NCBI RefSeq assembly: GCF_051860785.1
Contig: NZ_JBIMLB010000016.1
Location: 9,108 to 73,107, forward strand
Direction: 5' to 3'
DNA: 64,000 nucleotides
Origin: Hydrogenophaga sp.
GTDB lineage: Bacteria; Pseudomonadota; Gammaproteobacteria; Burkholderiales; Burkholderiaceae_C
Part shown: positions 2,829 through 16,317 of the stretch, piece by piece
Layout: each line of letters starts with the position of its first letter
Numbering within the stretch: position 1 is the first letter of the stretch
Program-made: the position numbers and the translations under genes
Notes under the pieces: generated by a model
Database searches by the model: none
What the model saw: only the letters and a program-made list of their open reading frames with translations
Told to the model about the DNA's origin: nothing

Positions 2829-3021
2829 TATTTGCTTTGATCAACTGCGGGAAAACCCTCAATCCAAGAGCCGGACGAGCAAGAATTGACGCCATGTTGG
2901 CTGCGCCATCGGATCGCAGCTTGCGGCGAAACCTGGCGAGCTTCTCAAGCGTGAGAATTCGCTAGGAAGAAGGTGGTGAAGGTGAAGAGCATGCGCCTCG
3001 ATGGAGCCAGCGGCGAAGGCT

Positions 3022-3098
3022 TGGCCTGCCCGGAGGGACTCGAACCCCCGACCTGCTGCTTAGAAGGCAGCTGCTCTATCCGGTTGAGCTACGGGCAG
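3022..3098 (-). tRNA. tRNA-Arg(UCU)
   Basis: 77-nt cloverleaf, anticodon arm GCTGC-CTTCTAA-GCAGC, GTTCGAGT T-loop, encoded CCA. Confidence 0.97.
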
Positions 3099-3117
3099 AC
3101 AGAGTGACTGGTGATAC

Positions 3118-3145
3118 AAAAAAGGCCCACACTGTGGGCCTTTTT
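3118..3145. terminator. Intrinsic terminator-like hairpin between tRNA-Pro and tRNA-Arg
   Basis: A6-GGCCCAC-ACT-GTGGGCC-T5, with U-tracts possible on both strands. Confidence 0.65.
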
Positions 3146-3156
3146 GTTTCGATCAA

Positions 3157-3233
3157 TGGTCGGAGCGGCGGGATTCGAACTCGCGACCCTCTGCTCCCAA
3201 AGCAGATGCGCTACCAGGCTGCGCTACGCTCCG
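3157..3233 (-). tRNA. tRNA-Pro(UGG)
   Basis: CGGAGCGTAGCGCAGCCTGGTAGCGCA...TCTGC-TTTGGGA-GCAGA...CCGACCA, 77 nt. Confidence 0.97.
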
Positions 3234-3279
3234 ACTAAGCGGTGGATTGTACCTGTTGCCAGGCACCCCATCGTCCACC

Positions 3280-3984
3280 TCATCGTTTTTCGTATTGCGT
3301 CTTGCCAAACAGCACGTCGCGCGACTTGTCGTCCGTCAGCGGCTTGCGGGCGTCGGCCAGCACGGTCACGGCGCGTTGCACAGCCGGTCGCGCGGCGATG
3401 GTGTCGAACCAGACCTTCAGTCGCGGATGGTCGGCCCAGTCGATGCCCTGGTTCTGCCAACTGCGCAACCAGGGAAAGATGGCGATGTCGGCCACGCTGT
3501 ACTGGTTGCCTGCGATGAACTTGTGTTGGGCCAGTTGGCGGTCCATCACGCCATAGAGGCGCCTGGCTTCATTGGAGTAGCGGTTGATGGCGTACTCGAT
3601 CTTCTCGGGTGCGTACAGGCGGAAGTGGTGCGCCTGGCCCAGCATGGGGCCCACGCCACCCATCTGGAACATCAACCACTCCAGCACCTTCCATTTCGCG
3701 CGGTCCGACCTGGGCAGGAATTTGCCGGTCTTGGCGGCCAGGTACAACAGGATCGCGCCGGATTCGAACAAACTGATGGACTCACCATCCGGCCCCTCTG
3801 GATCTACCAGGGCCGGGATCTTGTTGTTCGGGCTGATCTTCAGAAACTCGGGTGCGAACTGATCGCCCTGGCCGATGTTGATGGCGTGCACTTGCCAGTC
3901 GCGTCCCAGCCGCAGGCCACATTCCTCCAGCATGATGTGAACTTTGTGTCCATTGGGCGTGGGCCAGGAGTAGACGTCAATCAT
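3280..3984 (-). CDS. Glutathione S-transferase, YfcG/YghU (Nu) type
   Basis: MIDVYSWPTPNGHKV, SPNNKIPAL and SLFESGAILLYLA GST motifs. Confidence 0.9.
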   Translation of the reverse strand: MIDVYSWPTPNGHKVHIMLEECGLRLGRDWQVHAINIGQGDQFAPEFLKISPNNKIPALVDPEGPDGESISLFESGAILLYLAAKTGKFLPRSDRAKWKVLEWLMFQMGGVGPMLGQAHHFRLYAPEKIEYAINRYSNEARRLYGVMDRQLAQHKFIAGNQYSVADIAIFPWLRSWQNQGIDWADHPRLKVWFDTIAARPAVQRAVTVLADARKPLTDDKSRDVLFGKTQYEKR

Positions 3985-4061
3985 GAAGAGAGGCCTTTCT
4001 GTCAGTAGAGGGCGGTTGGTTATGCTCGGTGGCAATTCACTCTACGGGAAAACACAAGTCC

Positions 4062-4730
4062 ATGTTCGAGCGACTGGGAAAAGCGTTGGGTGCTCTGTTG
4101 ACATCCTCAGACCCTTCGGGTCCGCTGGCGCACTGGGCCTTGTCGCACGGGCTGGCATTCAAACCCATGTTCGGCGGCGCGTACGCCATGGTGGGTCAGT
4201 GGCAGAGCCGAAGTGTTCGCATCGAATGCGGAGCACCTTCGCGGCCCTATTTGCAGGGCATGGAACTCATGGGCCGAGTCGATCTGGGCCTGGCCACGCC
4301 GGGCAGTGTGGTGCTGATGAACCGCTCACTCAAGCGTGCATTCGAGCAGCAGGCGACGGCGCTGTATGCCAGCTACACCGACAGCCTGCAGACCAGTGCC
4401 GCGATGCTGCCGGAGGAAATCCGGTGGCTGGCGATGTACCGCGATGCGGGTTGGGCCGGGCCCGACGAGGCGTTCTGGGAACGCTATGCCGTGCTCACCG
4501 ACTCGACCGATGCTGCCAGGTCATGGATCGACGCGAGCGCCGTGCAGCGGCTTATGGACTGGCCGGGCGACACCGTTTCCGCTGCCACGCCGTTGCTGTT
4601 CATGCTGCTGCGTGGCAAGGTCTATCTGCGCCTGCAGATCGACCAGACGCGAGACGAGCCCGCGGCGTTGCATGCCATGGAGCTCCTTCGCCACCTGAGC
4701 GAGCAGGCCAGCGCGCTGCCCACGTCCTGA
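4062..4730 (+). CDS. Hypothetical protein (222 aa)
   Basis: Fills the gap between the GST and ACAD genes with GC3-rich codons. No motif recognised. Confidence 0.7.
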   Translation: MFERLGKALGALLTSSDPSGPLAHWALSHGLAFKPMFGGAYAMVGQWQSRSVRIECGAPSRPYLQGMELMGRVDLGLATPGSVVLMNRSLKRAFEQQATALYASYTDSLQTSAAMLPEEIRWLAMYRDAGWAGPDEAFWERYAVLTDSTDAARSWIDASAVQRLMDWPGDTVSAATPLLFMLLRGKVYLRLQIDQTRDEPAALHAMELLRHLSEQASALPTS

Positions 4731-4746
4731 GGCGTGGTGAGCGTCT

Positions 4747-6006
4747 TCAGAAGCCGCGCGTGACCGGCATCTCCACGTCGGTCTTGACCGTCATGTGGCG
4801 TGCGAGTTCCAGTTTGGCGATGGACTGGCGGTGCACTTCATCTGGCCCGTCGGCCAGGCGCAGCGTGCGCTGGCTGGCATAGGCGTAGGCGAGCGGAAAA
4901 TCGCCGCTCACGCCACCGCCGCCATGGGCCTGAATGGCCATGTCGATGACGTCGCATGCCATGTTGGGAGCCACCACCTTGATCATCGCGATCTCGGCCT
5001 TGGCCACCTTGTTGCCCACGGTGTCCATCATGTAAGCCGCCTTGAGGGTGAGCAGGCGTGCCATCTCGATGCGGCAACGTGCATCGGCAATGCGCTCGTG
5101 CCATACCGATTGCGCTGACACCGGCTTGCCGAAGGCCACACGGCTGTTGAGCCGCTGGCACATCAGTTCCATGGCGCGCTCTGCTGCGCCAATGGACCGC
5201 ATGCAGTGATGGATGCGGCCGGGGCCGAGCCGACCCTGGGCAATCTCGAAGCCGCGGCCTTCGCCGAGCAGGATGTTGCTGACCGGCACGCGAACGTTCT
5301 CCAGCAGCACTTCCATGTGGCCGTGCGGCGCATCGTCGTAGCCGAACACCGAGAGCGGTCGCAACACGGAGATGCCTTTGGTATTCGCCGGCACCACGAT
5401 CATCGATTGTTGTGAGTGGCGGGGCGCATCGGGATTGGTCTTGCCCATCACGATGTAGACCGCGCAACGCGGATCACCCGCGCCGGAGGACCACCACTTG
5501 CGGCCGTTGATCACGTACTCGTCGCCATCGCGCTCGATGCGGCACTGGATGTTGGTCGCGTCCGATGAGGCCACTTCGGGCTCGGTCATCAGGAACGCCG
5601 AACGGATTTCGCCGCGCAGCAGGGGTTCGAGCCATTCATCTTTCAATGTTTCGCTGGCGTAGCGCTCCAGCGTTTCCATGTTGCCGGTGTCGGGCGCGGA
5701 GCAGTTGAACACCTCTGCCGCGAACGGCACGCGGCCCATGATCTCGCACATCGGTGCGTACTCAAGGTTGGACAGGCCCTGCGGCGCACGCGGGCTGCGT
5801 GGCAGGAACAGATTCCACAGGCCTGCGGCCAGCGCCTTGGGCTTGAGCTCCTCAATGATGGCGGTCGGTACCCAGGGGTTGCCCTTGGCCCGATTGGCCG
5901 AGATTTCCTCGAAGAAGCGTGCCTCGTTGGGGTACACGTGCTGGTCCATGAACGCGAGCAGGCGCTCGCGCATGTCCTTGACCTTGTCGGTGTAGTCGAA
6001 ATTCAT
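4747..6006 (-). CDS. Acyl-CoA dehydrogenase, ACAD10/11 (FadE2/LvaC-like) subfamily
   Basis: [42 protein letters not shown] and [10 protein letters not shown] motifs. Confidence 0.92.
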
Positions 6007-6048
6007 CGTGTCTCCTGTAGGGTGAGGCTTGGATGCCTGGGAAGGGGA

Positions 6049-7134
6049 TCAGCCGGCGCTGGCAAACTGCCAGGCCAGTTCGGCCATGGGCCGTGCACCT
6101 GAGGCCGACTTCACGGCCTGGGCGCTGGATGCGGTGCCGGCCTCCACCCGCTTGGCGATGCCTTGCAGGATGGCCGCCAGGCGGAACATGTTGTAGGCCA
6201 GGTAGAAATTCCAGTCCGCCTTGAGCTGATCGGGCTGCACGAAGCCGGTGCGCTCGCAATACAGCGCGATGTAGTCGGCTTCCGATGGAATACCCAGCGC
6301 TGGCAGGTCCAGGCCGGCGATGCCGCGAAACGCGCCGGGTGGAATGTGCCAGGACATGCAGTGGTAGCTGAAGTCGGCCAGTGGGTGACCCAGGGTGGAG
6401 AGTTCCCAGTCGAGCACCGCGAGCACGCGCGGCTCGGTGGCGTGGAACATGAGGTTGTCGAGTCTGTAATCGCCGTGCACGACAGACAGCAGCGACTCGT
6501 CGCGTGCCATGGCCGGCACGTTCTTCGGCAACCACTCCATGAGCCGGTCCATGGCGTCGATGGGTTGCGTGACTGACGCCTGGTACTGCTTGCTCCAGCG
6601 GCCGATCTGGCGTTCGAAGTAGTTGCCCGGCTTGCCGTAGCCGTCCAGGCCGATCTCCAGCGGTCGCACGGTGTGCAACGCGGCCATCACGCGGTTCATT
6701 TCGTCGTAGATCGCGCCGCGCTGCGTGGGTGTCATGTCAGGCAGGGACTGATCCCACAGCACGCGCCCATCCACACATTCCATGACGTAGAAGGCGCGTC
6801 CGATGACCGATTCGTCTTCGCACAGTGCGTGCATCCGGGCCACCGGAACGCCCGTGCCGTGCAGTGCGCTCATCACGCGAAATTCACGTTCAATGGCATG
6901 GGCCGATGGCAGCAGTTTCGCCACGGGCCCAGGCTTGGCGCGCATCACGTAGGCGCGTTGCGGTGTGATCAGTTTGTAGGTGGGGTTGGATTGCCCGCCC
7001 TTGAACATCTCGACGGTGAGCGGACCGGCGAAGCCAGGGACCTGTGTCTCCAGCCAGGCCGAGAGGGCCGCTTCGTCGAACGCGTGCTGGTCCGCCACGG
7101 GCCGGGTACCGGTGAAGTTCTGGTGATCGCTCAT
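6049..7134 (-). CDS. APH-family phosphotransferase, ACAD10/11 N-terminal-like
   Basis: FKGGQSNPTY, LLPSAHAIERE, HGDYRLDN and LDWELSTLGHP motifs. Confidence 0.9.
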   Translation of the reverse strand: MSDHQNFTGTRPVADQHAFDEAALSAWLETQVPGFAGPLTVEMFKGGQSNPTYKLITPQRAYVMRAKPGPVAKLLPSAHAIEREFRVMSALHGTGVPVARMHALCEDESVIGRAFYVMECVDGRVLWDQSLPDMTPTQRGAIYDEMNRVMAALHTVRPLEIGLDGYGKPGNYFERQIGRWSKQYQASVTQPIDAMDRLMEWLPKNVPAMARDESLLSVVHGDYRLDNLMFHATEPRVLAVLDWELSTLGHPLADFSYHCMSWHIPPGAFRGIAGLDLPALGIPSEADYIALYCERTGFVQPDQLKADWNFYLAYNMFRLAAILQGIAKRVEAGTASSAQAVKSASGARPMAELAWQFASAG

Positions 7135-7198
7135 GAAGCGGGTCCCCGAGGCGAGGTGAGGTAAGGGGATGACCGCGTCGGCCGTTGACCGACCTTGC

Positions 7199-7918
7199 TC
7201 AGGACTCCGACTCGGCAATGCGCATGAGCATGTCGCGGTTGCGAACCACCAGCCCACCTTGTTCGATGCGGATCGCGTTCTCGCGCTCCATCGACTTGAG
7301 CTCCTGATTCACACGCTGGCGCGAAGCCCCCAGCAACTGCGCCAGTTCTTCCTGGGCCAGTTGCAGGCCGATGCGCATCTCGCTGCCATCCGACAGGCAG
7401 GGCACGCCGTAACTGCGCACGAGGTGAAGCAACTGTTTGGCCAGGCGTGCGCGCAAGGGTAGGGTGTTGAGGTCCTCCACCAGGCCGAACAGCGTGCGGA
7501 TGCGCCGCGCCTGCAGGCGCATGAGCGCTTCGTAGAGCTCCACGTGTGTGCTCAGAATCTTCTGGAAATCGGTCCGGGCCACGCAAAGCATGGTCGTGGG
7601 TCCGTGGGCGTAGGCATCGTGCGTGCGCTGGTCGCCGTCGAACATCGCCACATCGCCGAACCACACACCCGGCTCCACATAGGTCAACGTGATCTGCTTG
7701 CCCGAGAGCGAGGTCGAACTCACGCGCACCGCGCCCTTGGCCACAGCCGACCATTCGGAAGGTGGATCGCCGCGGGCGACGATCAGGTCGCCGTCCTTGA
7801 ATCGCTTGACGTAGGCGCATCGGAGTATGTCGTGACGCAGGGAAGGAGATAGGCTGCTGAACCAGCGACCGTTGTTGATCGCCTCGCGTTCTTCCATTGT
7901 CAGAATCGGTTCGTCCAT
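7199..7918 (-). CDS. Crp/Fnr family transcriptional regulator
   Basis: cNMP-binding domain (WFGDVAMFDGDQRTHDA) and HTH QEELAQLLGASRQRVNQ. Confidence 0.92.
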   Translation of the reverse strand: MDEPILTMEEREAINNGRWFSSLSPSLRHDILRCAYVKRFKDGDLIVARGDPPSEWSAVAKGAVRVSSTSLSGKQITLTYVEPGVWFGDVAMFDGDQRTHDAYAHGPTTMLCVARTDFQKILSTHVELYEALMRLQARRIRTLFGLVEDLNTLPLRARLAKQLLHLVRSYGVPCLSDGSEMRIGLQLAQEELAQLLGASRQRVNQELKSMERENAIRIEQGGLVVRNRDMLMRIAESES

Positions 7919-8016
7919 GGGCTGTCTTTTGAGTGACTGGAAAAGCGATCATTGTCACCACAGGGACGTGGCGGGAGGATCAGGGTATGCGCGCAGGCTC
8001 TGCGCTGGGGCGTCGC

Positions 8017-8796
8017 TCAGCGGTAGCTGGCGGGGCGCTTTTCCATGAAGGCACTGATGCCTTCACCCGCATTGGCGTGGTGCAGGCAGCGCACGAAGTG
8101 GTCGCGTTCGGCCGCGAGCTGGGCATGCAGCGCCTGTGTGGATGCGTCGTTGGCCAGCTCCTTGATGCTCGCCAGTGCGTTGGGCGCTCGTGCATTGAGC
8201 CGCTCGCTCAAGGCCAGAGCATGGGTCAGGGCCTCGCCGGGTGCGCTGACCTGGTTGATCACGCCCAACTGATGCAGTCGCTCGGCGCCGATGCGGTCCC
8301 CGCACATCAGCAACTGCAGCGCGGTGGCGCGTGGCAGGGCGCGCATGAGGCTCCAGGTCGCGCCACCATCTGGCGAGAGGCCGACGGTGCTGTAGGCCAT
8401 CACAAAAACACTGTTCTGCGCAGCCACCACCATGTCGCAGGCCAACACCAGGGAGAAACCAGCGCCGGCACAGGAGCCTTCCACCGCCGCAAGCACCGGC
8501 TTGGGAAAGGTGCGGATGGTCTCGACCCAGTTGTGAAGGCCTTCGATGCTTTGTGCCTGAACCTCGGGCGGTTGCTGGCGATTGTCCAGCAGCCGTTGCA
8601 GGTTGCCGCCCGCGCAGAAATGGCTGCCTTCTCCGGTGATCACCACGCTGCGCACTTCGTCGCTGCTCTCGGCCACGTTGAGGGCCTCCACGCCGGCGGC
8701 GTACATGTCCGGACTCAGCGCATTCCGGTTGTCGGGGTTGCTGATGGTCAGCACCATGGTCTGGCCATGGCTGTGGCTCTTGAGGCTGGCGGTCAT
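8017..8796 (-). CDS. Crotonase-superfamily enzyme (PaaG/oxepin-CoA hydrolase-like)
   Basis: FCAGGNL, KPVLAAVEGSCAGAGFSL and VGLSPDGG crotonase motifs. Confidence 0.85.
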   Translation of the reverse strand: MTASLKSHSHGQTMVLTISNPDNRNALSPDMYAAGVEALNVAESSDEVRSVVITGEGSHFCAGGNLQRLLDNRQQPPEVQAQSIEGLHNWVETIRTFPKPVLAAVEGSCAGAGFSLVLACDMVVAAQNSVFVMAYSTVGLSPDGGATWSLMRALPRATALQLLMCGDRIGAERLHQLGVINQVSAPGEALTHALALSERLNARAPNALASIKELANDASTQALHAQLAAERDHFVRCLHHANAGEGISAFMEKRPASYR

Positions 8797-8804
8797 GAAC
8801 TCTC

Positions 8805-10322
8805 TCATTCCTCGTGGGTAAGACTCAAGCCCAATGCGCCACGCCGACGCAGCCAGGGAGAAGGGCGGTAGCGTGGATCGCCGTACACGGTCTGCAGGTT
8901 GAACAGGATCTCCAGCACGTTGGTCGGCCCGATGCGATCGCCCATGGCCAGAGGCCCTGCCGGGTAGCCCAGGCCGAGTGTGACCGCGATGTCCAGATCG
9001 GCGGGTGAGCAGATACCTTGCTGGCACATGTCGGCGGCAATGTTGACGATGGTGGCGACCACGCGCTGCGTGACGAAACCGCCGCTGTCGCGGATTACGC
9101 TCACCGGCTTGCCATCGCGCGCGAACAGCGCGTGCGCGGCGTCGCGCATGTCGGCTCGCGTGGCGGGGTTGGTGGCCAGCACGCGACGGCGCGTGGCGGC
9201 GTCTTCCAGCATCATGTCGATGCCCAGGGTGCGTGTGGCGTCCAGCCGCTCCACCGCGGCCAGTGTGGTCACGTCCAGACCCAGAGGCGCCACCAGGATC
9301 AGCGCGCTGGCCGAGGGGGTGGCCCCGGTCTCGATGCTTGCACCCAGGTTCTTGAGCAACTGGTAAAGCTCCTGGCGCCTGGCTGCCTTGGGCGAGACCC
9401 ACACAGGTGGAAGTTCAGCGATGCTGGGGGTGGGTGGCTCGGCGGACAAGCGGGCCACGCCCTTGTCGTAGACGTAGAAACCTTCGCCGACTTTCTTGCC
9501 CACCACACCGCCAGCGAGGCGCTGGGCGGTGATGACGCTGGGCCGGTAGCGTGGTTCTTCGAAGTACTGGTGGTAGATGGATTCCATCACCGGGTGCGAG
9601 ACGTCCAGCGCGGTCAGGTCCATCAGTTCGAACGGACCAAGGCGAAATCCCATCTGGTCCTTGAGGATGCGGTCGATGGTGGCGAAATCGGCCACCTGCT
9701 CCCCAACCACCCGCAGCGCTTCGGTGCCATAGCCGCGCCCGGCGTGATTGACGATGAACCCGGGCGTGTCCTGGGCCACCACCGGGGTGTGACCGAATTG
9801 GCGTGTGTAGTCGGTGAGGCGCTGGCACACCTCGGCACTGGTCTTCAGGCCAGCAATGACCTCGACCACTTTCATCAGCGGTACGGGGTTGAAGAAGTGA
9901 TAGCCCGCGAGTTGCGTTGGGCGCTTGAGTGCCGCGGCGATCGCGGTGACCGAAAGCGACGAGGTGTTGGTTGCGAGAACCGCGTCGGGCTGCACGATGC
10001 CTTCGAGGTCGGCAAACAGCCGTTGCTTCACATCCAGCCGCTCGACCACTGCCTCGACCACCAGATCGCACGGAGCGAGGTCGGTCAGCGCCTGGGCCAG
10101 ATGAAGGCGTTCCAGGCAGGCCTGCATGGTGGCGGCGTCCATGCGGTTCTTGCCCACGAGTGTCTGCCAGGTGGTCTGCAGGGCGTCCCGAGCGGCCTGG
10201 GCGGCACCGGCCTGCACGTCGAAAAGCCAGACCTGGCTGCCGGCCTGTGCCGCCATCTGGGCAATACCGCGGCCCATGGCACCGGTTCCAACAATGCCTG
10301 CCGACGGAAAAATGGGTTGCAT
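8805..10322 (-). CDS. 3-hydroxyacyl-CoA dehydrogenase (PaaH-like, duplicated C-domain)
   Basis: GTGAMGRG Rossmann motif, EAVVERLDVK, ATNTSSLS, HFFNP and PGFIVNH. Confidence 0.92.
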   Translation of the reverse strand: MQPIFPSAGIVGTGAMGRGIAQMAAQAGSQVWLFDVQAGAAQAARDALQTTWQTLVGKNRMDAATMQACLERLHLAQALTDLAPCDLVVEAVVERLDVKQRLFADLEGIVQPDAVLATNTSSLSVTAIAAALKRPTQLAGYHFFNPVPLMKVVEVIAGLKTSAEVCQRLTDYTRQFGHTPVVAQDTPGFIVNHAGRGYGTEALRVVGEQVADFATIDRILKDQMGFRLGPFELMDLTALDVSHPVMESIYHQYFEEPRYRPSVITAQRLAGGVVGKKVGEGFYVYDKGVARLSAEPPTPSIAELPPVWVSPKAARRQELYQLLKNLGASIETGATPSASALILVAPLGLDVTTLAAVERLDATRTLGIDMMLEDAATRRRVLATNPATRADMRDAAHALFARDGKPVSVIRDSGGFVTQRVVATIVNIAADMCQQGICSPADLDIAVTLGLGYPAGPLAMGDRIGPTNVLEILFNLQTVYGDPRYRPSPWLRRRGALGLSLTHEE

Positions 10323-10398
10323 AAGTGTGTCGTATTTGGAATAAGAGGCCCGGCGGCTATGACAAAATGACCGAACGAAAGAACGAAGGACATCCAAC

Positions 10399-12528
10399 GT
10401 GCGCCAGACATGGACAGCCTGTATTTTGCTATCAACTGCCATGGGCAGTTCGGCAGTGACCTTGGGAAGGCACAGTGGCGCAGCCCTCATTGGTCAACCG
10501 CTTGATGTCCGGGTGCAGCTTCTGGTCGGTCCTGATGAGGACGCCACCAACCAGTGCGTGACCACCGACGTGTTCTATGGCGACGCCCAGGTCTCGCCGG
10601 GCACCGTTCGCAGCACGCCCCAGAAGGCCGCCGGGGCCGATGCCCAGGCCTCGGTCCGCATCCAGTCGACCTTGCCGGTGAACGAGCCCATCGTCACGCT
10701 TTATGTGAAGGCAGGTTGCAGCAACCCTTTCACCCGACGCTATGTGCTGCTGGCCGATTTGTCATCGGAACCCGCAACGACCAGTTCTGCTGCACCCTCT
10801 GCTCCCTTGGCTGCACCCGTGCGGCCTCCCGCTGCCGAATCGGTGACGCCACCACCCCGTGCCGCGGCGGCGCCACGCTCTGATCGCGGTGCCAGAACCC
10901 CTGGCGCTTCCACGCGACCCGCCCCCGGGGCTGCGAGCCAGGCCAATGACCGGTCGGCTCCTGCCTCGAGGCCTCCCAGCGTGGTGCGCCGAGCGCCCAC
11001 TCCCGTGGCAGCGCCGCGCCTTCAACTCGACCCGGTGGATCTGGACCCCGGCATCGAGCGCGATCCGACGCTCAGGCTCTCACCGTTGATGCTCAGCGAA
11101 CCTGGAAGCTCCGAAGAAGCGCGGGCCGCCGCGACCGAGCGCTGGAAGGCCATCAACGCCTCGCCCGAGGACATCTTGCGCGATGCCCGCAAGCTGGGCC
11201 TCCTGGAGGCCGAGGCTACCGAGCTGCGCAACGCGCAAACCAGGGACCAGGCCAGCCTTGCCGAGCTGAAGTCCCAGCTGGAACAGGCGCGGGACCAGCG
11301 GTACAGCAACCCGCTCGTTCATGTGCTGGGTGGCTTGCTGCTGCTCGCGCTGCTGGCGTTGTTGTGGATCTGGCGGCGCAAGGCTCCGGCGGCAGGTTCC
11401 GAGGCTTCGCGTGCGTGGTGGTCATCTCATCCCGATGACAAGACGGCGGCCGACAAGCTTGGCGAACCTGTGGTGCGCAGTCCGCCGACGCCTGCCCCGA
11501 TCGTCGATGAAGGCAAAGAGATCGACTTCAATCTGGACGACGATTCTTCATTTGATGTGCTGACCCCCCCCAGGGCGGGCACGGTGCGCAGCGGCAGGCC
11601 TCCCCTCGCAGCGGAGCAGGCTCCAGCTCTGCCCACCCGCGACAAACGCGAATTTTCGTCCAGCGCCATCGGCGGCTCGCGTTCCATCGCTACCGAAGAG
11701 TTGTTCGATATCCAGCAGCAGGCCGACTTCTTCGTCTCGCTGGGCGAGGATGGACAGGCCATTGAGGTGCTGCGCAATCACCTTGCCGAAAGCCATGAGC
11801 CCAGCGCCTTGGCCTACCTCGATCTGTTCAAGCTGTACCACCGGCTTGGCCGGCGCCACGATTACGACCAGTTGCGCGACGAATTCAACCAGGTCTTCAA
11901 CGCCGGCGCACCACCTTTCGATCACTACACTGACGCCGGGCGAGGGCTGGAAGCCTATGAGACCGCGTTCAGCCGCATCCAGTCGCTGTGGCCGGAGCCC
12001 CGTGTGCTCGATCTGATCGAGCAATCGATCTTTCGCGATGCTTCCGACGACGAAGTCGAAGTCTTCGACCTTGAGGCTTACCGCGAACTCCTGCTGTTGC
12101 ATGCGATAGCGAAAGATCTCATCAAGCGCGATGGAACCCAGACCGCAGGCAACAGCGAATTCCGCCACACCGCCGTGCAGCCCCTCAAGGCGGCTGGTCG
12201 CCTGCTTGAGGGCTCGCCGATTGCCCAGACAGGATCTGCCCACGACGTTCGCGAGCGCAACACCCAACCCATGGGGCTGGACACGATGACACCTGCATCC
12301 TCGCGCCTGGGGCTGGACGTGAATCTGGACGACCTCTCGGAGTTTTCGGCATTCGAAGCCTCGCTGCCGGAAGTGGACGTGACCATCGAGCCAACCGTCA
12401 AGCCTCCTGAAGAGGAGCCACCTGGCGATTCGGGTGGCAATCTGATTGATTTCGAAGTGCAGGACTTCATGCCGCCCGAGCACCAGGACACCGACCGTCG
12501 CGACGGTGATCCCGACAAGAAGCCCTGA
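10399..12528 (+). CDS. FimV/HubP-like polar landmark protein
   Basis: FimV-type N-terminus (LGRHSGAALIGQPLDVRV), Pro/Ala linker, coiled coil, one TM helix and an acidic C-terminus with QQADFFVSLG. Confidence 0.65.
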   Translation: MRQTWTACILLSTAMGSSAVTLGRHSGAALIGQPLDVRVQLLVGPDEDATNQCVTTDVFYGDAQVSPGTVRSTPQKAAGADAQASVRIQSTLPVNEPIVTLYVKAGCSNPFTRRYVLLADLSSEPATTSSAAPSAPLAAPVRPPAAESVTPPPRAAAAPRSDRGARTPGASTRPAPGAASQANDRSAPASRPPSVVRRAPTPVAAPRLQLDPVDLDPGIERDPTLRLSPLMLSEPGSSEEARAAATERWKAINASPEDILRDARKLGLLEAEATELRNAQTRDQASLAELKSQLEQARDQRYSNPLVHVLGGLLLLALLALLWIWRRKAPAAGSEASRAWWSSHPDDKTAADKLGEPVVRSPPTPAPIVDEGKEIDFNLDDDSSFDVLTPPRAGTVRSGRPPLAAEQAPALPTRDKREFSSSAIGGSRSIATEELFDIQQQADFFVSLGEDGQAIEVLRNHLAESHEPSALAYLDLFKLYHRLGRRHDYDQLRDEFNQVFNAGAPPFDHYTDAGRGLEAYETAFSRIQSLWPEPRVLDLIEQSIFRDASDDEVEVFDLEAYRELLLLHAIAKDLIKRDGTQTAGNSEFRHTAVQPLKAAGRLLEGSPIAQTGSAHDVRERNTQPMGLDTMTPASSRLGLDVNLDDLSEFSAFEASLPEVDVTIEPTVKPPEEEPPGDSGGNLIDFEVQDFMPPEHQDTDRRDGDPDKKP

Positions 12529-14119: not shown

Positions 14120-14806
14120 TCAGAGCTGGAAACTGTTGCGGATCAACCCCACCGCCAGCCCCTCGATCTCGAAGGGCTCGCCTGGTTCGACCACGATGGT
14201 CTTGTAGTCGGGGTTTTCGGCATGCAGTTCGATCAGGTGCTGGCGCCTCATGAACCGCTTGACGGTGACGTCGTCGCCCAGGCGAGCCACCACGATCTGG
14301 CCATTCTTGGCTTCCTTGGTCGCCTGCACGGCAAGCAGGTCGCCGTCCATGATGCCGGCGTCCCGCATGGACATGCCGCGCACCTTGAGCAAGTAGTCTG
14401 GCGCACGCTGAAACAGGCTGCGCTCGACGTGGTAGGTCTGGTCCACATGCTCCTGCGCCAGGATGGGGGAACCCGCTGCCACGCGGCCGATCAGGGGCAA
14501 CATGAGCTGGGAGAAACCAGGGAGCGGCAGTGTAAGCTGGCGAGCCCTTGAATCATTGATGGAGCGCAGGTCTTCGCTGCGCAACCGGATTCCACGGGAC
14601 GTTCCACTGACCAGCTCGATGACGCCTTTGCGAGCCAGTGCCTGAAGGTGCTCCTCGGCAGCGTTGGCCGACTTGAACCCCAGTTCGCTGGCGATTTCGG
14701 CCCGCGTGGGTGGCGCACCTGTGCGGGCAATGGCGGTCTGGATCAATTCCAGAATCTGCTGCTGCCGGGCAGTGAGCTTCGGGGTGGCATGGGGCATGTC
14801 GGACAT
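14120..14806 (-). CDS. lexA: SOS repressor LexA
   Basis: PPTRAEIA...NAAEEHL HTH, Ala-Gly cleavage site (VAAG), catalytic Ser (GMSM) and Lys (VKR). Confidence 0.97.
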
Positions 14807-14871
14807 GAAAACCTCGTCTGGAACGTGGAGAGGGGCCGGAGGACAAGCGGGCTGGGACTGTATACCTATAC

Positions 14872-14887
14872 CTGTTTTCTTATCCAG
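14872..14887. promoter_or_regulatory. SOS box CTGTTTTCTTATCCAG
   Basis: CTG-N10-CAG upstream of lexA. A degenerate third box (CTGTATACCTATACCT) lies at 14858-14873. Confidence 0.75.
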
Positions 14888-14890
14888 TGG

Positions 14891-14906
14891 CTGTATTTTT
14901 AACCAG
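14891..14906. promoter_or_regulatory. SOS box CTGTATTTTTAACCAG
   Basis: CTG-N10-CAG with an AT-rich core. Confidence 0.8.
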
Positions 14907-14923
14907 TTTGGGAGACTTGGCAA

Positions 14924-15895
14924 GTGGCGCAGGCAAATCGGGCTGATCGATTGGTGTTGTTGGGCACGGGTGGGACCATCGCGGGGCGGGCTGCCGAGGC
15001 AGCGGACAACGTGGGTTACGTGGCGGGCCAGGTTGACGTGGCCGAATTCGTTGCTGCGGTGCCTGCACTTGATGAGGCGCCTCTCGACGTGGAACAGATC
15101 GCCCAGATCGACAGCAAGGACATGGGGCTGGGCGTCTGGCAAGCCCTGGTGCGGCGCATCGCTGCGCATCTGGAACGCCAGGAGGTGAAAGCGGTGATCG
15201 TCACCCACGGCACCGACACCATCGAAGAGACCGCCTTCCTGCTGCAAAGCTTGCTGCGACCGGCAAAACCCGTGGTGCTCACGTGCGCCATGCGGCCGTC
15301 CACGGCCCTGATGCCAGATGGCCCTCAGAACCTGAGCGATGCCGTGGTGGTGGCTCGTTATGAAGGTGCGGTGGGTGTCGTTGTGGTGTGTGCGGGGCAA
15401 GTGCACGGCGCCCGCGACGTGGCCAAGGTCCACACGTACCGGCTGGACGCTTTCGATTCGGGCGATGCAGGCCCGCTGGCATGTGTCGAGGAAGGGCGGG
15501 TGCGGGCGTTTCGCAACTGGGATTCGGCGGGTGAAGACCGGCCGTTTGATACAAAAGCGCGGGCGCGCTTTCTGGCCATCAAGGAGCTGCCGCGCGTTGA
15601 GCTGATCACCAGCCATGCCGACGCCGACGGCAGTCTGGTGCGGGGCTTGCTCGCACTGCGGCACGAAAGACCTTTGCGCGGCATCGTGGTGGCAGGCACA
15701 GGCAACGGCACGGTGCACAGTGCGTTGACGAAGGCCTTGAACGACGCGCAGGCGCAAGGGGTTCGGGTGAGGCTGACCAGCCGCTGTGTGAATGGTCGCG
15801 TGGTACCTCATCCAGGACTGGCTTTCGAGGACGCTGGCGGCCTTTCCCCGGTCAAGGCGCGGTTGGCGTTGGCGCTGGACCTGCTGGAGGTCTGA
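14924..15895 (+). CDS. L-asparaginase/glutaminase (no obvious signal peptide)
   Basis: GTGGTIAG and HGTDT catalytic motifs. GTG start. Confidence 0.9.
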
Positions 15896-15897
15896 TC

Positions 15898-16317
15898 GTG
15901 CTGGCCGCGCTCGGCGCCCATCCTTGGGCCTATCCCATGCTCGAGGTGGCGCATCTGTTGGGCGTCGCGCTGCTGCTGGGCAACCTGGTGCTTCTGGAGC
16001 TTCGCGTCTTCGGCTGGGGCGCGGCTCTGCCGGTGGAGCCCCTGGCACGCCTGAGCCTGGGATTGGCGATCAGTGGCTTTGCACTCGCTGCGGTCTCGGG
16101 CTTGCTGATGTTTGGCACGCAACCCGGGGAACTGTTGGCAAACCGTGTGTTCACAGCCAAGATGGTGCTGATCATGCTGGCGGGCTGCAACGCTGGCTGG
16201 TTCCATGCGCGTCGGTCGTTGCAACGGCAGGACGGCACGGCCCGCGCCTTGATGACGCTGTCGACCGTCTTGTGGCTGCTGGTGCTCACGTGCGGTCGAT
16301 GGATCGGCTATGTGTGA
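15898..16317 (+). CDS. 4-TM membrane protein (DUF6644-like)
   Basis: [19 protein letters not shown] and three further hydrophobic helices. GTG starts 2 nt after the asparaginase stop. Confidence 0.75.

Follow-up and report, generated by a model that had tools for sequence, protein, structure and literature searches.

We analyzed a 64,000-nt stretch of Hydrogenophaga sp. DNA (assembly GCF_051860785.1, contig NZ_JBIMLB010000016.1, positions 9,108-73,107), the whole of which is referred to here as the window. By its closest relatives, this DNA belongs to a Hydrogenophaga species within the Comamonadaceae. Two adjacent genes on the minus strand of the window, one encoding a kinase and the other a flavoenzyme with an acyl-CoA dehydrogenase (ACAD) fold, very probably make up a split bacterial ACAD10/11-type module, in which two enzymes would together bring 4-hydroxy acids into beta-oxidation. 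The two proteins are orthologous to mammalian ACAD10/11, their catalytic and phosphate-binding residues are conserved, and the adjacency of their genes is conserved among relatives. Because of this homology and these residues, the pair most likely phosphorylates 4-hydroxyacyl-CoA and then eliminates the phosphate; the reactions are proposed by analogy with the published enzymology of orthologues, namely mouse and human ACAD10/11, Pseudomonas putida LvaA/B/C and a pair from Burkholderia pseudomallei. An earlier reading of the same DNA, here called the original prediction, had proposed a split ACAD10/11 module for 4-hydroxyacyl-CoA phosphorylation, and this core proposal is supported by very strong homology and by the conserved key residues.

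The kinase gene (361 aa) runs on the minus strand from an ATG at 7134 to a stop codon at 6049, and its product matches the Pfam APH family with an E-value of 1.5e-51. The ACAD gene (419 aa), assigned by its PDB matches, lies downstream on the same strand, with its ATG at 6006 and its end at 4747. Direct reading of the sequence places 42 bp between the two genes (6007-6048, minus strand), including an AGGAG ribosome-binding site before the ACAD start, which gives exact coordinates to the two adjacent, co-oriented genes 42 bp apart that had been described originally. All of the motifs quoted at that time are present in the translated open reading frames (ORFs): GGQSNPTY at residues 46-53, HGDYRLDN at 220-227 and DWE at 242-244 of the kinase, and the two ACAD motifs at residues 101-111 and 383-392. 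A longer, GTG-initiated ORF for the kinase, reaching 7257, was rejected. Since this longer frame overlaps the upstream gene and has no support among relatives, and since the match in one relative (locus L001) spans residues 1-361, the start was set at ATG 7134. The 42-bp spacer is too short to leave room for an LvaB-like gene, and no small ORF of this kind was found in either the 42-bp kinase-ACAD spacer or the 64-bp spacer of the window sequence, in agreement with the claim that such a gene is absent between the two. A scan of positions 3000-10800 returned no promoter-like sites, and terminator-like sites in that region were not in excess over shuffled sequence.

The ACAD-fold protein matched Pfam Acyl-CoA_dh_N, Acyl-CoA_dh_M and Acyl-CoA_dh_1, all above their cut-offs (E-values of 1.5e-37, 6e-21 and 1.7e-6). 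In a search of all PDB sequences, its best matches were mouse ACAD11 (8v3u, 3e-142) and human ACAD11 (2wbi, 7e-142), and a Mycobacterium abscessus protein (4hr3) matched at 1e-132, whereas the best ordinary ACAD reached only 1.5e-37. Identity to the ACAD domain of mouse ACAD11 was 57% by BLASTP. Residue by residue, R259, R264, H267, R270 and D386 correspond to R626, R631, H634, R637 and D753 of mouse ACAD11, the HCMR motif being H267-C-M-R270, and the 14-residue stretch that holds R259, H267 and R270 is identical in the mouse protein. In ACAD11, D753 (catalytic), R626, and H634 and R637 of the HCMR motif have been described as essential or as contacting the 4-phosphate, together with R631 as a residue of general importance (Rashan et al., 2025; PMC12440821). 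Both papers on ACAD10/11 report that the aspartate replaces the catalytic glutamate of ordinary ACADs (PMC12440821; PMC11342911), and the observation that Asp occupies the usual Glu position in the Hydrogenophaga protein was correct, with D386 aligning to D753. The signature residues were also found in the ACAD10-like and ACAD11-like fusion proteins of a representative library, whereas a pair of generic ACADs encoded at a related locus lacked them. The ACAD gene product is therefore most likely a 4-phosphoacyl-CoA phosphate-eliminating enzyme, a prediction made from sequence.

The kinase shows the APH fold with a complete set of expected elements, namely the HxD..N catalytic loop, the DWE metal-binding motif, the beta3 Arg and the alphaC Glu. 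Its best PDB match is 3dxp of Cupriavidus pinatubonensis JMP134 (5e-169; 72% identity in the tree alignment), a structural genomics entry that carries the misleading label "putative acyl-CoA dehydrogenase" and describes a protein known from its structure only. It also matches the N-terminal kinase domain of mouse ACAD11 (3e-82 in the PDB search; 43% identity by BLASTP). The likeness to the mammalian proteins thus extends over both halves: the ACAD11 and ACAD10 structures (PDB 8v3u, 8v3v and 2wbi) share with the window pair the catalytic Asp, the HCMR motif and the upstream Arg of the ACAD, as well as HGD..N and DWE of the kinase. The family is large, with 1668 clusters (at 50% identity) at E-values below 1e-30, and most of these clusters represent stand-alone proteins of ~350 aa, while a minority are fusions of 600-1006 aa; fused relatives of 772-1006 aa occur within the top 150 homologues. 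We built a maximum-likelihood tree of 102 kinase domains, a set that did not include LvaA. In this tree the window protein grouped with stand-alone bacterial kinases in a clade of 49 members that was supported; the node where this clade meets those with fusions of the ACAD10 and ACAD11 types is unresolved. From its PDB matches and its conserved residues, the kinase is most likely orthologous to the kinase domain of ACAD10/11 and, by prediction, a 4-hydroxyacyl-CoA 4-kinase.

The names under which homologues of the two proteins are recorded ("aminoglycoside phosphotransferase", "phosphotransferase family protein" and "acyl-CoA dehydrogenase") would instead describe an antibiotic-modifying phosphotransferase beside an ordinary fatty-acyl-CoA dehydrogenase, and weak NCBIfam matches to APH(3') (E-value of 1e-5) point in the same direction. 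This description is almost certainly wrong. Identity as an aminoglycoside kinase was rejected with an APH(3') score of 25 bits against a cut-off of 205, the ACAD carries the Asp and the HCMR phosphate-binding signature that ordinary ACADs lack, and ACAD10/11 are inactive on unsubstituted acyl-CoAs (PMC12440821).

A different question is raised by a 2026 preprint (10.1101/2025.09.10.675409), which reports that 1-O-alkylglycerols were phosphorylated in vitro by the kinase domain of ACAD10 and by several of its prokaryotic homologues. The physiological substrate of the kinase could accordingly be a glycerolipid (a 1-O-alkylglycerol or a monoacylglycerol), in which case its pairing with the ACAD would reflect something else. 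The substrate used for the ACAD10 domain and the purified prokaryotic homologues was chimyl alcohol, and some of these enzymes needed acetyl-CoA to act on it. The crystallized kinase of Caldalkalibacillus thermarum (PDB 9o56), which is reported as an alkylglycerol kinase, gives an E-value of 3e-39 with the window kinase and shares its catalytic residues. Mutagenesis showed that R61, E78, D214, K216, N219, D234 and E236 matter in this enzyme (10.1101/2025.09.10.675409), and these positions correspond to R65, E84, D222, R224, N227, D242 and E244 of the window kinase; six of the seven, at which mutation reduced or abolished activity, are identical, and the exception (K216 to R224) is a conservative Lys-to-Arg change. 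However, the two enzymes are only 30% identical, and the C. thermarum kinase forms a long outlying branch in our tree. An acyl-CoA substrate is also what the tight, conserved coupling of the window kinase to an ACAD of the phosphate-eliminating type argues for, the activation by acetyl-CoA suggests a CoA-binding pocket, and ether lipids are not known in Comamonadaceae. Moreover, in 37 of 80 Bacillales loci (L245-L324) the relative of the C. thermarum kinase lies at most 5 kb from an ACAD10/11-type ACAD, which favors an acyl-CoA substrate in bacteria generally; these Bacillales ACADs are 63-68% identical to the window ACAD. We also observed that genes for a short 3-hydroxyacyl-CoA dehydrogenase and a crotonase are often close by in the Bacillales loci. 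On balance we regard a glycerolipid as a very unlikely physiological substrate for the Hydrogenophaga kinase.

Under the acyl-CoA reading, the kinase would use ATP to convert a 4-hydroxyacyl-CoA into a 4-phosphoacyl-CoA, phosphorylating its 4-hydroxyl. Asp386 of the flavoenzyme would then take the C2 proton while a hydride passes transiently to FAD; the phosphate, gripped by R259, H267 and R270, would be eliminated and the electrons returned. The expected product is a trans-2-enoyl-CoA, an ordinary beta-oxidation intermediate, and an external electron acceptor would be unnecessary. This elimination mechanism is taken from published work on orthologues (PMC11342911, section 13; PMC12440821). 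Candidate sources of the 4-hydroxy acids may include lactones, 4-hydroxyalkanoate polymers and oxidized lipids.

We assessed how far the pair is conserved in 80 Comamonadaceae loci and in a second set from other Burkholderiales (Cupriavidus, Ralstonia, Paraburkholderia, Trinickia and Oxalobacteraceae). The ACAD gene directly follows the kinase gene in 70 of the 73 Comamonadaceae loci with enough downstream sequence, and the gap between them has a median of 43.5 bp (74 loci). The kinase-then-ACAD order was found in 42 of 73 loci from the other Burkholderiales. For the Burkholderiaceae, Paraburkholderia and Trinickia supplied orthologues that share 68-71% identity with the window kinase and 75-76% with the window ACAD, and their genes are likewise adjacent. 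The partner ACAD gene of Cupriavidus, by contrast, lies 3-6 kb downstream of the kinase gene rather than next to it; the same interval was found in Ralstonia (Ralstonia L103 8050-11690; Cupriavidus L084-L101), where the intervening stretch holds an SDR gene, two LysR regulator genes and a 4HBT thioesterase gene. In both genera the ACAD gene stays next to a glutathione transferase gene. We also noticed another type of cluster on a Comamonas endophytica plasmid (NZ_CP106882.1, L163 5065-8743), with the order ACAD, SDR, phosphotransferase and GntR regulator. As its ACAD likewise has the HCMR and (I/L)YDGP signatures, this secondary replicon may hold a paralogous kinase/ACAD system.

The closest functional precedent comes from B. 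pseudomallei. Its kinase Q63VL0 and ACAD Q63VL1 were chosen for study because they are closer to ACAD10 than the Pseudomonas Lva proteins are (Paquay et al., 2024; PMC11342911). Each was purified singly, without LvaB, and each substituted in vitro for the matching domain of ACAD10, converting 4-hydroxyhexanoyl-CoA to its 4-phospho ester and then to hexenoyl-CoA (PMC11342911). Judging from their consecutive accessions, the two are apparently encoded by an adjacent, split gene pair. Like the window pair, they are betaproteobacterial, are encoded by two genes in split form and have no LvaB partner. The mammalian proteins differ in being single fused polypeptides, peroxisomal or mitochondrial, and ACAD10 carries an added HAD domain, whereas the Hydrogenophaga functions are encoded by two separate genes. 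The original prediction had presented the unit as having a different architecture; the absence of LvaB stands, but the novelty does not, as the two-gene form of B. pseudomallei has already been assayed (PMC11342911) and the split form is widespread.

The other well-studied bacterial system is that of P. putida KT2440, in which, according to the accounts of Rand et al. (2017) given in PMC6692424 and PMC12440821, LvaA/B/C convert 4-hydroxyvaleryl-CoA to 4-phosphovaleryl-CoA and then to pentenoyl- or 3-hydroxyvaleryl-CoA. The catalytic Asp is also found in LvaC, as are the active-site sequences (PMC12440821). Given that the chemistry is identical and that lvaABCD homologues have been reported across Alpha-, Beta- and Gammaproteobacteria (PMC6692424), one could take the window pair for a dedicated levulinate/4-hydroxyvalerate operon equivalent to lvaABCDE. 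The details of the locus make this highly improbable. LvaA requires the 12-kDa LvaB, for which the 42-bp gap has no counterpart, and is reported to be only 29% identical to the ACAD10/11 kinases, whereas the window kinase is 43% identical to ACAD11. The lva operon also adds an SDR (LvaD), a CoA ligase (LvaE) and a sigma-54 regulator (LvaR), and none of these was found at the window pair. We scanned the 30 larger ORFs of the window, a survey that was not exhaustive, and found among them no CoA ligase, thiolase or SDR, as had been claimed for ligase, reductase and thiolase, and no LvaD-, LvaE- or LvaR-type gene. Finally, housekeeping surroundings and near-universality are unlike what is expected of an accessory, substrate-specific operon. 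Because the pair sits in a housekeeping setting and is nearly universal in Comamonadaceae, we read the ACAD10/11-type module as a general auxiliary beta-oxidation function rather than a levulinate operon.

The genes upstream of the pair were also considered. Two of them lie on the minus strand and encode a crotonase-fold protein (259 aa, 8017-8796) and a 3-hydroxyacyl-CoA dehydrogenase (505 aa, 8805-10322). The former belongs by NCBIfam to the PaaG-like "alternative oxepin-CoA hydrolase" family, with 389.2 bits for NF046063 ("oxepin-CoA hydrolase, alternative type") against a cut-off of 300. Its PDB matches include 4jfc (6.5e-117) and, as the closest among named structures, the epoxyphenylacetyl-CoA isomerase PaaG (4fzw_C, 6.5e-44). 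In the alignment to 5zai, S115 takes the place of the Glu of the GGGxE motif and Y133 that of the second Glu, while the Asp of the PaaG-like PDGG motif is retained. The family was defined only from phenylacetate fitness data of Paraburkholderia (PMC9007349); in P. bryophila, H281DRAFT_04594 is needed for growth on phenylacetate, and its S118 replaces the catalytic Glu of the hydratases, E144 in the rat enzyme (Price et al., 2022; PMC9007349). The window protein resembles it in scoring above the NF046063 cut-off and in having a Ser for E144, and the Paraburkholderia crotonase-fold gene that adjoins the kinase gene also has S118. A generic enoyl-CoA hydratase was considered for this neighbor and rejected because both catalytic Glu residues are missing and the NF046063 score is above the cut-off. 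The dehydrogenase, whose start was set from the sequence at ATG 10322, is PaaH-like, with one 3HCDH_N and two 3HCDH C-terminal domains (Pfam); it scored 732 bits for PRK08268 (cut-off 508) and 452 bits for TIGR02279 (PaaH), under the cut-off of 669. Given the match to the oxepin-CoA hydrolase family and the PaaH-like dehydrogenase, the role of the two neighbors is more probably in phenylacetate catabolism than in handling what the kinase and ACAD produce. The linkage of a crotonase gene and a 3-hydroxyacyl-CoA dehydrogenase gene to the pair had been described correctly (8796-8017 and 10322-8805), but the loss of the Glu residues, the oxepin family and the likeness to PaaH speak against a generic hydratase and make a part of the two in the 4-hydroxy acid chemistry improbable.

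Between the crotonase-fold gene and the kinase gene lies a gene of the Crp subfamily (239 aa, 7199-7918, minus strand), with a cNMP-binding domain and HTH_Crp_2 by Pfam, and thus the Crp/Fnr-family gene noted next to the pair is indeed there. The protein has no Fnr cysteine cluster, and its nearest structures are Mycobacterium tuberculosis Crp and a GlxR-type protein of Corynebacterium glutamicum (~1e-22). The gene is directly upstream of the kinase gene in 79 of the 80 Comamonadaceae loci, with 76-99% identity, and its product is more conserved than the enzymes (99% vs 94% identity in the nearest relative). No conserved canonical Crp site (TGTGA-N6-TCACA) was found upstream of the dehydrogenase, crp, kinase or ACAD genes across the 80 loci. 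The protein is a candidate local regulator. In many Comamonadaceae loci we observed a GGTGACAA element ~40-75 bp upstream of the crp start, which takes the form GGTGACAATGATCGC in the window (within 7919-8016) and GGTGACAACCCTGACG in Acidovorax, and which may be an autoregulatory or promoter element.

On the other side of the pair is a gene for a Nu-class (YfcG/YghU-like) glutathione transferase (GST; 3280-3984, minus strand), recognized by Pfam GST_N and GST_C and scoring 234 bits for NCBIfam PRK13972, under the cut-off of 332. Its true start is probably ATG 3984 and not TTG 4035, since the match to the family profile sets in at residue 18 of the longer frame. In the second set, 28 of 32 loci have a GST gene within 150 bp after the ACAD gene, as do 9 of 17 loci in Comamonadaceae. 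Between the two in the window we observed a 233-aa ORF on the plus strand (4029-4730), convergent with the ACAD gene with stop codons 16 bp apart. It gave no Pfam or NCBIfam match, and its position is kept although it diverges fast, identity being 87% to the nearest Hydrogenophaga and 31-57% to other Comamonadaceae.

The whole neighborhood in Burkholderiaceae and Oxalobacteraceae runs from the PaaH-like dehydrogenase through the crotonase-fold gene, a histidine phosphatase (His_Phos_1), the kinase and the ACAD to a Nu-class GST. Its genes are spaced as in an operon, the median gaps being 18 bp from the crotonase gene to the phosphatase gene, 55 bp from the phosphatase to the kinase, 56 bp, and 86 bp from the ACAD to the GST. 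The phosphatase gene is immediately 5' of the kinase gene in 41 of 79 loci of these families (for instance, L109 6201-6932 and L122 6239-6958). In Comamonadaceae the phosphatase gene is missing from the neighborhood and the Crp-family gene occupies its slot, so that what precedes the kinase gene is a histidine phosphatase in Burkholderiaceae and a Crp-family regulator in the window, while a Methylibium locus (L145) has both. A histidine phosphatase also stands in place of LvaB in the lva cluster of Pseudomonas citronellolis (PMC6692424), and a phosphatase next to the kinase parallels both that gene and the HAD domain of ACAD10. We count as new the PaaH-like partner dehydrogenase, the Crp-family gene in the slot that the histidine phosphatase holds in the sister families, and the Nu-class GST usually found after the ACAD; the conserved downstream GST and the position of the Crp gene go beyond the original prediction.

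This conserved order could mean that the whole run from the PaaH-like dehydrogenase to the GST is one unit for the catabolism of phenylacetate or aromatic CoA-thioesters, or for aldehyde detoxification, with the kinase and ACAD salvaging a hydroxylated acyl-CoA by-product. The order is kept in Comamonadaceae, Burkholderiaceae and Oxalobacteraceae with operon-like gaps, and the crotonase family is required for growth on phenylacetate in Paraburkholderia (PMC9007349). However, the phenylacetate phenotype was reported for the hydrolase only and not for its neighbors (Price et al., PMC9007349), 4-hydroxyacyl-CoA is not known from the paa pathway, and in Cupriavidus and Ralstonia the neighborhood is interrupted by the 3-6 kb of unrelated genes described above. 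Long-range synteny of core genes can also last without a common function, and we consider this single unit decidedly unlikely. A more speculative proposal, which we regard as unlikely, is that a larger Burkholderiales unit (PaaH-like dehydrogenase, oxepin-CoA hydrolase, phosphatase or Crp, kinase, ACAD and GST) clears hydroxylated or aldehydic acyl-CoA by-products of ring cleavage or lipid peroxidation, with the Crp-family protein sensing a pathway metabolite and not cAMP. If this were true, the bacterial ACAD10/11 pathway would have a third functional element, a phosphatase or a regulator, as a counterpart to the HAD domain in ACAD10.

Several points weigh against assigning the pair to 4-hydroxyacyl-CoA phosphorylation and phosphate elimination. 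In Hydrogenophaga the assignment is a prediction from sequence, and orthology to the assayed bacterial proteins was judged from ACAD11, 3dxp and Paraburkholderia proteins as proxies (71% and 75% identity). No CoA ligase or transferase to form the substrate was found among the scanned ORFs of the window, and the neighboring crotonase and dehydrogenase, which look phenylacetate-related, give no direct support. Furthermore, three Comamonadaceae loci hold the kinase without an adjacent ACAD, and the in vitro activity on 1-O-alkylglycerols discussed above belongs on this side of the balance as well.

The remaining genes of the window are of housekeeping type and include lexA, xseA, icd, purD, the RNase G gene, tol-pal, dapD and dapE. 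Divergent from the PaaH-like dehydrogenase gene is a 709-aa ORF on the plus strand (10399-12528), with a signal-peptide-like N-terminus; it is conserved in relatives, though variably (24-83% identity), and had no match in NCBIfam, the library searched. Genes for tRNA-Arg(TCT) and tRNA-Pro(TGG) lie on the minus strand at 3022-3098 and 3157-3233, between the GST gene and a gene for an ABC-transporter binding protein. A 642-aa ORF on the minus strand (14120-16048) matches LexA in its C-terminal third only; as the match is confined to residues 424-633, the real lexA is much shorter than this frame, a common artefact of high-GC DNA.

The pathway has already been demonstrated for mammals, Pseudomonas and Burkholderia, and both its chemistry and the split architecture have been published; the Hydrogenophaga pair is therefore an expected addition that does not open a new kind of biology. 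Its functional reading has value for annotation, because the public records carry only generic names: the two genes, which are core in Comamonadaceae and present in many other Burkholderiales, could be renamed as those of a predicted 4-hydroxyacyl-CoA kinase and a predicted 4-phosphoacyl-CoA phosphate-eliminating enzyme. Hydrogenophaga and Cupriavidus are known producers of polyhydroxyalkanoates. The finding bears on bacteria whose substrates include gamma-lactones, 4-hydroxyvalerate derived from levulinate, 4-hydroxybutyrate or oxidized lipids, and on the engineering of polyhydroxyalkanoates that contain 4-hydroxyalkanoates.

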